DNA of 64,000 bases, from the NCBI RefSeq assembly GCF_048593235.1, contig NC_133622.1, forward strand, positions 242,513,198-242,577,197, read 5' to 3'. The translations under genes were made by a program, and so were the position numbers. The DNA comes from Sminthopsis crassicaudata (Eukaryota). This document shows positions 1-32,689 of the stretch, one piece after another; positions within the stretch are counted from its first letter, which is position 1, and each line of letters begins with the position of its first letter. The notes beneath the pieces were generated by a model that made no database searches, was not told the DNA's origin, and saw only the letters and a program-made list of their open reading frames with translations.

Positions 1-1599
1 TAATCTTTTTATAATAGGGTCATCAGCCGCAGCATTCCCTAAAGTACGTTCGGCAGTCTCTAGAAGTCTGCTTATGAATTCAGAATATTCCTCATCCTTT
101 TTCTGGCTGATTCTGTTTAAGGGCATAAAAGGAGAGCCAGTAACAGGGAGGGCCCGCCATGCCTTATGGGCAGCGTGATCAATTTGTTCTAAGAGTCCTG
201 TAGGAAATTTTTTCTGTTTTTTCTCTAGGGCGTATGGTCCTCTGCCTGTTAATTTCTCATAAGTCCAATCTTTATTTTTGGTTTTAAGGTTTCTTTTCTC
301 TATAATCCTACACTGGTGGTCAAATTCAGATTGCCAGTTTATGAACTGTCCTTTAGTCAATACCGATTGAGCAACTTTCACCCATTCGGTAGGGGTCAGT
401 AGACCACCTCTTTTAGCAGCTTCTAAGGCCGACAAGGTAAAGGGAGCATTAGGGCCATAATTTTTAACAGCTGAAAGAAGATCTTTCAAATTTTTAAATC
501 GGGGTTTGACAAAGTCTGTTTCTTCCTCAGAATCCGTCCCTCCCTCATTTTCTTCTATTTTTTCCTCATTTTCTTCCTCATCTGTCCCTTCATCAGTATT
601 GTCTGCTTCTTCCTCCTCACTCCCCTCTTGCGCCGCATCGGCGCCATGAGTGGCTTTTTTCTTTCTAGTAATGACGGGAAAATTAAAGGAGCTACGTTGT
701 TTAGCTTTTGTAGGGTTATTCCTAGGATCCTTTTTAGGGCTAGAGTTGTGTTTGGCTAAAGTCTGGGAAGGCGGGGCCAGATTTTCAAGATTGAGCAAGG
801 GGGAGGTTTGAAGGGAGGCTTGTAAAGCCGAAAATTCCTTTGTCATTTCAAGATATTGTTTCTGTAAATCTAAGGTTTTCCGCAAGGCAGACATGCGTTT
901 GGTAATATCCTCCTGGACTAGACTAAGATCTGGAGTAACAAAGGGGTGAGAAAGGGAATTCTTAAGGATAGGAGGGGCCGAAGGATGTTGTGAGACATGC
1001 ACCCCACAGGGATCGTAAGCAGCGGCTTCCTCTTCAGTGAGACTCTCACTGTCTTTTCTATTTCTTGGCTGGTTTTGTTTATAGGGAAAAACAGGAAAGG
1101 CCAGGAGGGAACCTTCCAAAGGGGGCAGGGGGGATGATGAGATGGGCGGATATATGGATTTAGGTTGGTAGGGGGGCATTTCAATAATCACAGAGGGAGC
1201 CTTTTTAGGGACAGATTCTGGTGGAATAGAGCTATGTGACACGGCATGAGACAAAGGACGCAGGCAAGACTCTGCTTCTATAAGTAATTGTCTAATTTTG
1301 CCACTATTGTTTGAATCTTCTACAATGTCATTAATTAATTTCCAAAGGGTTAAAACCTTCTGGGGGACGCTTTCTCCTCCCTGGATTTCTTTTTTAATGA
1401 GTTCGTTTAGGTCTTGTCCTACCTTTTGCCATTTTCCTGGATGAATGTCAGGACCGTTTATTATAAACCAGGGGCAAACTTTATCAATATAGATAAAAAA
1501 ATTTATAAGTTCCTTCTTTTTAACTTTAATACCTCTCTCTTTAAAATTTTCTTTAAGCTCTCTAACAAAATTTTCTTCCTTACTCAACTTAGATCCCAT
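1..1599 (-). CDS. gag: Retroviral Gag polyprotein (MA-pp-p12-like-CA), at least 533 aa, 3'-truncated by the window
   Basis: Hand translation of the minus frame from ATG 1599 to position 1 gives no stop. N-terminus MGSKLSKEENFVRELKENFKERGIKVKKKELINFFIYIDKVCPWFIINGPDIHPGKWQKVGQDL is a betaretroviral matrix with myristoylation Gly2. Also present: PSAP late domain (984-973), CA-like YGPNAPFTL..LTPTEW..WQSEF..LTGRGPY..AWRALP, and major homology region ISQKKDEEYSEFISRLL (~112-61). Confidence 0.95.
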   Translation of the reverse strand, partial: MGSKLSKEENFVRELKENFKERGIKVKKKELINFFIYIDKVCPWFIINGPDIHPGKWQKVGQDLNELIKKEIQGGESVPQKVLTLWKLINDIVEDSNNSGKIRQLLIEAESCLRPLSHAVSHSSIPPESVPKKAPSVIIEMPPYQPKSIYPPISSSPLPPLEGSLLAFPVFPYKQNQPRNRKDSESLTEEEAAAYDPCGVHVSQHPSAPPILKNSLSHPFVTPDLSLVQEDITKRMSALRKTLDLQKQYLEMTKEFSALQASLQTSPLLNLENLAPPSQTLAKHNSSPKKDPRNNPTKAKQRSSFNFPVITRKKKATHGADAAQEGSEEEEADNTDEGTDEEENEEKIEENEGGTDSEEETDFVKPRFKNLKDLLSAVKNYGPNAPFTLSALEAAKRGGLLTPTEWVKVAQSVLTKGQFINWQSEFDHQCRIIEKRNLKTKNKDWTYEKLTGRGPYALEKKQKKFPTGLLEQIDHAAHKAWRALPVTGSPFMPLNRISQKKDEEYSEFISRLLETAERTLGNAAADDPIIKRL

Positions 1600-1618
1600 G
1601 ATATCGACAGACGCGAAC

Positions 1619-1626
1619 ACTTACCT
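1619..1626 (-). promoter_or_regulatory. Proviral major splice donor
   Basis: Perfect consensus AG|GTAAGT about 25 nt upstream of the gag ATG. Confidence 0.7.
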
Positions 1627-1749
1627 CTTTTTACTTTCGTTTCACGGAGCTCCGTAACGCCAGCAGCCTGGGGGAGCGAAATCGTCTCTGGGGGTCCGGA
1701 CGGGCGGGGGGAGCGTTCTGTCGGGTCAAAGTCCCTATTTTTGAGCCTT

Positions 1750-1763
1750 CACGTTGGGCGCCA
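1750..1763 (-). promoter_or_regulatory. Primer-binding site, tRNA-Lys1,2 type
   Basis: TGGCGCCCAACGTG matches the first 14 nt of the canonical Lys1,2 PBS TGGCGCCCAACGTGGGGC, then reads AAGGCTC. Confidence 0.9.
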
Positions 1764-1766
1764 GTT

Positions 1767-2217
1767 TGACCTGTCCAGCAGGTCTTCAACGTGGGTCAAA
1801 AAAAGAAGGACATAGACCGAAATTAAGGCAAAAGCCTGCGGGGGCTAAGACAGCCCGGGAACAGGATCTAGAGAGAGAGAGAGGGGAGACTACTCAAAGT
1901 AATGGTCAAGCATGTCTCGTTTATTAGCTTACAGTTACAGAATTTATAGGCAGAAAACCGCAATGCCATGTATGCATAAGGATTGGGTAGCATGATAGAT
2001 GAGTCAAATATTTTTGTAACATTTACCAGGTGCAGATTATGAGACGGTTAGGGGCCCAAGGACGGGGTGGAATAACGTAGTTTTGTCTATTCCATATCAG
2101 TTCTGGGAACTGTGGTCTTGACATTCCTCAGAAATCATCAGCCTCAGGGCCGTGGTGACCTGGGTTTGTTCAAGAGGGGGGAAGAGCAAGGGGAAAGGTT
2201 GGGGAAGGTTCCTGACA
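1767..2217 (-). mobile_element. 5' LTR (451 bp) of the provirus
   Basis: Starts TGTCAGG, ends CAGGTCA three bases before the PBS. Contains CCAAT (~1985), TATAAA (1948-1943) and AATAAA (1925-1920); the close TATA/polyA spacing implies a short R region as in betaretroviruses. Confidence 0.9.
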
Positions 2218-3095
2218 GGGATTCAACATGGGGATCACAGCTATGTAGAATACAGAGAGCACCTTGTGGAGATCCAGAGAGAAGCTTGCTCTAGGCTGCA
2301 CATAATTGAAGAAGAGGGTCCCATAAAAGATGCTGGCAGCAGTTAGATGGCAAGAGCACGTAGAAAAGGCTTTATGCCTTCCCTCGGCAGAACCGATTCT
2401 GATGTTGGCTATGAGGTTGTAGATATAAGATGTGATGATCATCAGACTACTAAATATTAACATTGACCCAGCCATGACAAAAAGGACCATCTTGTTGACT
2501 GAGATGTCGGCACAGATGAGAATTAAGAGAGGTGAGATGTCACAGAAGAAGTGATTGATGACATTTGGGCCACAGAAGGGGAGCTGCAAAGCACCAGTGG
2601 TATGATTCATGGTGCTGGTGAAACTTGCAGCATAGGGGCCAGACTCCATCTGGATGCAGAGTCTCTGGTACATGGCCACAGAGTAGAGAAGGGGGTTAAA
2701 GATCGCTACATACCAGTCATAGGCCACAGATGCCAAGAGGAAGCACTCGGTGGTGGCCCCCAAAAAGCCAAAGAACCATTGATGCAAGGCACAGCCCAGA
2801 AAAGAGATGGTCTTCCTCTCCTCAAACAAGTCTCCCAGCATCTTTGGGATCACTACAGCAGAAAAGCCGATGTCCACAAATGATAGATGACTGAGGAAAA
2901 AATACATGGGGGTGTGAAGGCGGGCATCAATTCGCATAAGGAAGATCATTCCCAGGTTGCCTGTTGGATTAAAGAGATAAAAGGACAGAAACAACACAAA
3001 GAGGGCTACTTGCAGCTTAGGATGATTATCCTAAATATCCTAAATAACCAGAAAAATGAACTCAGTGCCCCTAGTGTAGTTTCCAAGAGTCTGTA
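2218..3095 (-). pseudogene. Olfactory receptor pseudogene, OR5G-like, interrupted by the provirus after PMLNP
   Basis: OR motifs [30 protein letters not shown]. Two in-frame TAG stops (3042-3040, 3033-3031) lie in a 9-bp tandem duplication ATCCTAAAT x2. MAYDRY is decayed to VAYDWY and AIC to AIF. The sequence switches to LTR immediately after NP. The OR5G assignment is from recalled similarity (WFFGF..TECFLLAS, CDISPLL, SFSL..K). Confidence 0.9.
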
Positions 3096-30794: not shown

Positions 30795-31553
30795 AATTGG
30801 GTTTTTTGTCTCCCTTCCCTCAGAATGTTTCAGCCATATCATGGCAGAAGATAAATATGTCATATGTTGATAATTAAAATGCTCCTGAACAAAAAGTCTA
30901 TTGGAGTAAATTTTGTTATCATTGTCATTGTCATTGTTGTTGTCTTTGACCAGCTCTTTCAGTGCTTTATTTTTATTAAAAGAGTTTCAAAGTACTGGTT
31001 CATAGTATTGTGTCTGCAAAGAACAAATTGAATGCCAGTCTTGGTTGAGAGCATACATACAGAAAGCAGCAACCAGATAAATGTGGATCTCTTTTGGCAT
31101 GATGCTATATCCATTTGGCTTGGACATGACCATGTATTTATTATAAGTTATTGTAACGAAGATATAATGCCGAACAAGAAGCAGTGTACTGCATGCGTAG
31201 CCCTTAAGAAAGTAACCAGAAAAGAAAACAGAGATATTTTCAGATAAAATGTTCACCAAAATCTTGGAGGTGATATTTGAGTAACAGTATAGGTCCTCAA
31301 CTTCCAAGTTACTGATGAGAAAGTGAATCCAAGTAAGAAGATAGTAGTCAGCACTAATCTGTACAGTCATTCCAAGATTTTCCACTAGAGGGAGAGCATA
31401 ATTCCCTAGAAAAACCATAAACAAGATATTCTTTAGCTCAGGACAATAAGCCAGTCTCTGTAGAATTGCAGTGCGTTTTATACCGAATCTTTCCATCTGA
31501 GCGAAATTTTCTATAGAAATAAAAGCAAAAGAAATCAGGAACAAAGAGGACAT
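30795..31553 (-). pseudogene. Heavily decayed OR5M-type pseudogene
   Basis: ORF 30987-31553 has eroded motifs (PELKNILFMVFL, ENLGM, DLYCYSNITSKILVNILSE, YNKYMVMSKP); a SAMIWLKHSEGR-like relic lies at ~30800-30860. Confidence 0.75.
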
Positions 31554-32689
31554 TATTGTTCTGTTTGTTTTTGTTGTTGTTTGTTTTGGAGTAAGGGAGA
31601 TGATTCACACAATTTGCCTTCTTGAAGGAGTCACAGTCTCACAGGGCTTCAGTTTCTTCGCTGGTGAAACAAGTGTTCTACTAGATGTGTCTTGTGTGTC
31701 CTTATCTGTTGCAATACTCTAATTCTATAATGCTATGATCAACAAAAAGGTGCTATTGAGTTCATCCCAAAGAGTATGGTAAGCAAAAAACAAAAAAACA
31801 AAAAACAAAATAAAACAAACAAACAAAAAAAAACAACAACACTGTTTCCTCATGTAATAATTGAAAATAATGGTGTGAAACCCAGTTACAATTAAAGCTA
31901 GATGGCATGCACTTCTACATGTGTTATCTCTGTTTTAATCACATCAAGAGGAATGGGGCAGGTAGAGCAAGCTTGGTTTAACATTATTTGAAAGCGAAAA
32001 TTTTATCTGTTGTTGCTCAAGTTAGGTAAAATATCTAGGTCCCCATTTACTTTCAAGATTTTCATTTATAAAATGGAAAGAAAAATACCTGTGGTATTTA
32101 ATCTGAAGGGTTGTTGTAAGAATTAACTGATAATAATATGTGTAAAATGTTTTAGACATAAATGCTATACAAATGTGTACTTATGCATGTATACACACAT
32201 ATGTGTGAATATCATTTATTCGTTTCAGACATGAGTGACTCCATGATCCCACTTGATATTTTCTTGGCAAAGACACTGGAATGATTTGTCATTTCCTTCT
32301 TCTGTTCATTTTACATATAAGAAAACTGAAGCAAATAGGGTTAAGTGACTTTTCTATGGTCATACCACTAATAAATATCTGAAGCTGGATTTAAAATTAT
32401 AAAGATAACTTTTTCTGATTCCAGGACTCACACTCTATCTAATGTAACACATAGATACCCATATATACAGGCATATATGCTTACATGTGAATATATAGGT
32501 TCAGATATATATGAACCTATATATTCACATGTAAGCATATATGCCTGTATATATGGGTACCTATATATATACATATACATATATATGTATATGTATACAT
32601 ATATATGTATATATATATGTATTAAAAGAAATATAGGTATACATATTATACTGTTTTATTTAATAGCTATTTTTCTAATCAATTTAGAA

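Follow-up and report, generated by a model that had tools for sequence, protein, structure and literature searches.

A young, env-deleted MEBrv 1 provirus, probably polymorphic, in an olfactory-receptor pseudogene of Sminthopsis crassicaudata

The window analysed here is a stretch of 64,000 nucleotides of the Sminthopsis crassicaudata genome (contig NC_133622.1, positions 242,513,198 to 242,577,197), which opens, at its left edge, with the 5' part of a provirus. A first-pass annotation took this element for a young, coding-competent, betaretrovirus-like provirus in a cluster of olfactory-receptor (OR) genes. The locus raises the question of whether the element can make its own proteins and, if not, how it came to be inserted there. 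Our reading, which we hold with a probability of about 0.85, is that it is a young MEBrv 1 provirus that has lost most of env, has broken reading frames, is flanked by a 6-bp duplication within an OR pseudogene, is likely polymorphic and was likely made with the help of other copies.

Structure, insertion site and age of the provirus

The provirus is 8,109 bp long and lies on the minus strand, as do all of the features of this locus described below. Positions 1–2217 of the window correspond to its 5' part, the rest being located to the left of the window. The 5' LTR (1767..2217) and the 3' LTR, 7.66 kb leftward, are each 451 bp long, start with TG and end with CA, and align with 0 mismatches and 0 gaps. 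The 5' copy of the 6-bp target-site duplication (2218..2223) is followed, after the 3' LTR, by its identical counterpart. As annotated, the LTR contains a TATA box (TATAAA, 1943..1948, LTR position 270) and a polyadenylation signal (AATAAA, 1920..1925, LTR position 293), the latter 23 nt past the start of the former and likely part of U3, before a short R of putative position. The leader carries the sole match of the provirus to the splice-donor consensus (1619..1626), a candidate donor recognized, as in the first-pass annotation, from its sequence. The CpG observed-to-expected ratio is 0.53 in the provirus versus 0.11 in the remaining 62 kb of the window, in agreement with the reported retention of CpGs against depleted flanks.

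The primer-binding site (1746..1763) had been described as an intact lysine site. It is probably of the Lys type, and comparison with other copies and with scERV5476, the MEBrv 1 representative, revealed agreement with the scERV5476 form over 14 nt, but divergence thereafter. The scERV5476 form is presumably the complement of tRNA-Lys1,2. The variant is common to most copies of the family, a minority of which harbor the scERV5476 form. Three forms of the site coexist among the family copies, and the non-variant form is present in 2 of the 8 copies that share the env deletion of this provirus, a pattern that replacement of the site by the primer tRNA in the course of reverse transcription would produce.

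The gag frame is open over its first 533 codons (1..1599) and continues past the window edge, where it enters the dUTPase part of pro without a change of frame. It encodes a matrix domain with Gly2 (1321..1599; PF02337, Gag_p10, E = 6e-18), which also matched M-PMV matrix structures, and a capsid N-terminal domain (142..498; PF00607, Gag_p24, E = 1e-30), both above the Pfam cut-off. The translation contains a PSAP late-domain motif at residues 206–209 (973..984), and the open gag with Gly2 and PSAP seen in the first pass was thus recovered. The major homology region, which had been called intact, is present (52..111, aligned to the solved capsid 6hwi) but reads QKKDE in place of the QGPDE of M-PMV-type capsids, with a lysine at the position of the glycine. 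Alignment also revealed an acidic stretch (514..627) just past the predicted start of the capsid (F|PV, a putative cleavage site). A long acidic stretch after the predicted capsid Pro1 was present in 20 of 20 rows of the clade to which this Gag belongs (marsupials, tenrec, lemur, gerbils) and in 0 of 4 outgroup rows, the JSRV-like rows of the alignment being devoid of it. M-PMV is not known to have such a stretch. Its length differs by 12 nt among copies of the family.

Reading the 6 kb to the left of the window overturned the claim of coding competence, since env is mostly deleted and three frame breaks are present in the sequence as assembled, at the end of gag, inside pro and inside the integrase. 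Such breaks in pro, pol and env were among the outcomes that the first-pass annotation had named as speaking against its reading. A total of 1,463 bp is missing from env, of which only a short initial part and a piece encoding the TM end (PF00429) are left. The pro region comprises dUTPase, protease and G-patch domains (PF00692, PF00077, PF01585), encoded by a single frame of 316 codons in most other copies. In this copy the dUTPase half is in frame with gag, the protease is in another frame and the integrase core is distributed over two frames.

The OR-cluster setting held, and the insertion point of the provirus falls within the coding sequence of an OR. The interrupted OR (2218..3030; PF13853, tail translation and alignment) is cut in TM7, its last 26 codons lying beyond the 3' LTR, outside the window. 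Ahead of TM1, a short tandem duplication independent of the provirus introduces two in-frame stops (3031..3042); there is no in-frame start ahead of TM1, and the DRY motif is altered. Because of the stops, the missing start and the changed DRY motif, the OR was likely dead before the insertion. The possibility that the insertion caused the loss of the OR was ruled out, as the stops and the missing start are located upstream from the provirus. The prior loss of the OR may explain why the provirus has persisted. Elsewhere in the window, five OR frames on the minus strand (6102–60694) are open between stops over 319–353 codons, and positions 30990–31604 correspond to an OR-like fragment.

The absence of differences between the LTRs (0/451) agrees with the recent insertion that had been proposed. 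It sets a 95% upper bound of approximately 0.7% on LTR divergence and, at an assumed substitution rate of 2–5 × 10^-9 per site per year, an age below approximately 0.7–1.7 million years. Eight aligned copies with the same env deletion display 1 mismatch across their 8 LTR pairs, which corresponds, at the same assumed rate, to a mean age of roughly 30–70 thousand years.

The first-pass annotation had also raised the possibility that the insertion is polymorphic. One contig of sequencing run X1 joins the flanks across the duplication (positions 1500 to 9616 of L001, the locus with the whole element), skipping 8,115 bases, and the six letters of the duplication fit either side of the joint. This evidence for an empty site consists of one contig with 30 letters on its short side, compared to a bridging guide of 31 letters, and no such joint was found in the other three of the four runs compared. 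In runs X3 and X8, contigs of the flank break off at the duplication and leave 7 letters unaligned, as an empty site could also produce. The flank occurs only once in the genome assembly, the next best match being 68–83% identical, and a paralogous OR was therefore ruled out, within the assembly, as the source of the contig. Contig depths were not taken as copy numbers, and four runs with a share of 0.00 from two other organisms were not taken as absence. No RNA dataset figured among those listed as containing the sequence. These observations indicate that the insertion is likely polymorphic, some chromosomes of the species being without it.

The MEBrv 1 family and the loss of env

Among the papers listed in literature searches, a single one deals with this family (Harding et al., 2024; PMC11334065). 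According to the accessible part of its text, MEBrv 1 is a type D element of 9.5 kb with an LTR of 453 and a gamma-type env; its gag and pol are nearest to those of TvERV, whose env belongs with MEBrv 2 and not with MEBrv 1; and it is intact, with identical LTRs, recent and possibly circulating. By-eye comparison with the scERV5476 sequence in the supplement of that paper indicated that the LTR of our provirus differs at 3 of 451 bases (approximately 99% identity) and that the leader and the start of gag are the same. The longest copies in the genome are 9,595–9,619 bp in length versus 9,613 bp for scERV5476, and the gag-pro-pol-env layout, the combination of beta-type gag and pol with a gamma-type env, and the recent insertion with identical LTRs are shared with it. 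In contrast to scERV5476, which is 9.6 kb long, has the non-variant primer-binding site and is annotated with all frames open (PMC11334065), this copy is 8.1 kb long, is missing 21 nt in gag as well as the 1,463 bp deleted from env, and harbors the three frame breaks. Judged by these comparisons, the element almost certainly belongs to MEBrv 1. The family of near-identical copies may nevertheless be narrower than the published clade, since the devil Gag is only 43% identical. The accessible text of PMC11334065 offers no per-locus census, and the words 'polymorphic' and 'olfactory' are absent from its main text; the accessible portions of PMC12866920 and of its preprint contain no discussion of this element.

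The exact 25-nt pattern of the LTR start was found at 95 places in the genome, and the capsid pattern at 24. Approximately 69 loci were examined (hand tally): two direct LTRs are present at 25, and a further 22 consist of a solo LTR with a duplication, a solo-to-provirus ratio near 1 that is a sign of youth. The remaining loci comprise 5 elements with a U3 end at both extremities, 3 that end at an internal CA, and 14 that are truncated or incompletely resolved. The LTRs are identical in 14 of the 24 two-LTR copies scored, and mean divergence is 0.7% among 22 aligned copies, an alignment from which L028/029, L033 and L039 were excluded as rearranged. The copy count, which the first-pass annotation had called for, reveals a family with many near-identical members, in line with its idea of a possibly still-active family. 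Segmental duplication was rejected as the source of the copies because their target duplications and flanks differ, except for one pair with the same 6-mer. Two loci located 122 kb apart, L026 and L027, have the same target duplication and likely result from a segmental duplication. At another locus (L022 1–627), the 3' LTR is followed by another primer site, as in a tandem provirus.

Among the 22 aligned copies, env is kept in 8, carries the deletion of this copy in 8 and carries other deletions, of at least five further sizes, in 6. The exact junction of the shared deletion was detected at 9 loci genome-wide, and the middle of env at 10 loci with 98–100% identity. A second, more distant group of env-related sequences (68–73% at the nucleotide level) is present at approximately 11 loci. 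The gag, pro and pol frames are open in 4 of the 8 env-bearing copies and in 7 of the 14 env-deleted ones. The ends of the shared deletion are not GT-AG, which excludes cryptic splicing as its origin, and display a 2-nt microhomology. Both features suggest a single origin of the deletion through template switching, after which it would have spread.

In the copy tree, which is weakly supported, copies with the shared deletion do not form a single clade and are interleaved with env-bearing copies. All four combinations of the 12-nt gag indel and of the env deletion occur. For 17 young copies, 259 of 378 pairs of informative sites are incompatible, and incompatibility does not rise with distance (37/61 pairs under 500 nt and 147/215 beyond 3 kb); part of it may result from recurrent mutation or from gene conversion. 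Together, these results indicate that copies of the family look recombined. Since the markers assort across env classes, the deletion may have spread through co-packaging and recombination with env-bearing genomes.

We lean slightly toward helper-assisted spread of the env-deleted copies. The env-deleted RNA genome would have been packaged and reverse-transcribed with proteins from other copies; the provirus described here would be a dead end for its own proteins, yet would have kept in cis its LTRs, primer-binding site, leader and polypurine tract. A competing explanation, to which we grant less than even odds, is that the env-deleted lineage spreads alone in germ cells, without a helper envelope, as an emerging retrotransposon of the IAP/MusD type. 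Type D capsids assemble in the cytoplasm, which counts for autonomous spread, as do the lack of most of env in 14/22 aligned copies, the presence of one deletion at 9 loci and the open gag, pro and pol frames of half of the env-deleted copies. Conversely, copies with the shared deletion are scattered among env-bearing copies and have markers in common with them, the various deletion sizes indicate that env loss recurs and is not the mark of one lineage, and the Gag of this copy has retained Gly2. Autonomous spread also has a precedent in the env-less intracellular route described for MEBrv 3, of which thousands of fragments are reported in the accessible part of PMC11334065. The family resembles MEBrv 3 and mouse IAP in that env has been lost, and gag and pol kept, in many copies, but differs from them in the coexistence of env-bearing copies (10 loci) and in its small size (95 LTR-start matches versus the thousands of MEBrv 3 fragments). 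Autonomous and helper-assisted spread can both hold.

The breaks in pro and in the integrase are private to this copy in a comparison with 11 other copies, and that at the end of gag recurs in one or two others. We consider it possible, but unlikely, that all three are assembly errors and that the locus holds an env-less provirus competent for gag, pro and pol. Two of the three breaks are located in homopolymer runs, the identical LTRs leave little time for the acquisition of three indels, and no other copy among the 12 compared has three such breaks. However, one break is outside any homopolymer, the gag-end break is also present in two other copies, and the five adjacent OR frames are open over 319–353 codons, indicating that the local assembly is not generally noisy; errors of reverse transcription, in addition, require no time after insertion.

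Relationships with other retroviruses

Protein searches scored approximately 8,000 candidates each, and quick trees were built from 24 of 37 Gag rows and from 30 of 121 Pol rows plus one cluster member, picked by name or high identity. The betaretroviral assignment of the first-pass annotation was borne out: Pol groups with betaretroviruses both in the matches and in the tree, the matrix and capsid are of the beta type and are accompanied by two zinc knuckles, the dUTPase, protease and G-patch domains belong to a separate pro frame, and the TG...CA LTRs are flanked by a 6-bp duplication, as in class II elements. The Env encoded by an env-bearing copy is of the gamma type (PF00429), with best matches in devil (57%), Apodemus (50%) and shrew (45%), and its full env frame gave MLV/FeLV-type matches, in agreement with the gamma-type envelope of a type D element. 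M-PMV and the other type D simian retroviruses share the matrix, the capsid, the dUTPase-protease-G-patch organization of pro and the gamma-type env, but are only 55–56% identical in Pol.

The six best named matches of Gag are all marsupial (possum, 49%; antechinus, 46% and 44%; bilby, 43%; devil, 43%; wallaby, 41%), followed by mouse lemur and tenrec at 39% each, the best named placental matches. In the Gag tree, the provirus is sister to a cluster of brushtail-possum ERVs (SH-aLRT 99) that contains AAF36393.1, which we take to be TvERV-D. This cluster has the same acidic stretch and is 73% identical in the capsid, but only 49% identical over the whole of Gag. Both are located in a clade of nine rows whose named members are all Australian marsupials, koala included. 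The wallaby sequences BCW03410 and BCW03412 and the ERVK-like Gags of devil, antechinus, bilby and koala belong to the same Australian marsupial clade but, at 41–46% identity in Gag and 69% in Pol, represent separate families. The nearest match of Pol (76%) is an unnamed protein, followed by the wallaby cluster (69%), with named placental matches at 57% or less; the fork uniting the provirus and wallaby has a support of 80, which is weak. The position of Gag next to the possum cluster and the 76% Pol match to an unnamed protein are what the TvERV-like gag and pol of MEBrv 1 would lead one to expect. A wider Gag clade includes rows from tenrec, mouse lemur and gerbil, and one Gag belonging to it bears the species name of a mite (P0018, Leptotrombidium), in a 1.9-kb contig that likely results from host contamination.

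The first-pass annotation had inferred possible cross-species transmission from the resemblance of the matrix to placental Gags, and had stated that clustering with long-known marsupial ERVs would remove the novelty. The element does fall among marsupial ERVs that were already known, and marsupial and placental members have the matrix motif in common. A recent jump of a betaretrovirus from a placental host to this marsupial appears very improbable: the matrix motif shared with tenrec, mouse lemur and gerbil Gags, the rodent and shrew env matches that follow devil, the argument that the MEBrv 1 env was imported (accessible part of PMC11334065) and the restriction of near-identical sequence to one organism among the matches listed (20/24 rows) are outweighed by the nesting of Gag among named Australian marsupial members only, by Pol identities of at most 57% for named placental matches versus 69% for the wallaby cluster, and by the lack of a close placental relative for any gene in these searches, in which the best Pol match was the unnamed one at 76%. 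This reading is largely refuted for gag and pol.

Aberrant integrants and activity of the family

Five elements (L018, L035, L036, L037 and L038) have the U3 end at their start and an inverted piece of the U3 start, of 15 to approximately 47 nt, at their finish. They range in length from 480 to 3,523 bp and are flanked by perfect 6-bp duplications. In L037 (3810–5738), approximately 1.9 kb of AT-rich DNA foreign to the family separates the primer site from the inverted U3 end, possibly as captured host sequence. Three other elements (L042, L048 and L070) end at an internal CA, in place of an LTR, followed by a 6-bp duplication. The end of L048 resembles the U3 tip over 7 nt. These internal ends suggest the use of cryptic attachment sites. 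From their sequences, both groups look like aberrant reverse transcripts that were integrated, in the case of the double-U3 elements through two U3 ends, a mechanism that remains putative. Among the papers listed in literature searches on double-U3 proviruses, none clearly addressed them. The env-loss census, the recombination and the double-U3 integrants do not appear in the accessible text of PMC11334065 and may be new at the level of the family.

The single locus is of little weight in itself, since the copy there is defective, belongs to a published family and occupies a dead OR; it would serve at most as a presence/absence marker. At the level of the family, we put forward only tentatively, and as doubtful, the view that this dunnart branch of MEBrv 1 represents an ongoing invasion of the germ line, a second case resembling KoRV, in a marsupial bred in the laboratory, seen as it passes from infection to env-less spread, together with a so far undescribed class of integrants in which each extremity carries a U3 attachment site (5 of approximately 69 loci), one of them with 1.9 kb of non-family DNA. 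The identical LTRs, the empty allele and the presence together of env-bearing and env-deleted copies suggest that germ-line activity of the family is ongoing or very recent in Sminthopsis crassicaudata. If the family is active, endogenisation, env loss and integration errors could be traced in pedigrees, which is hard to do in koalas.
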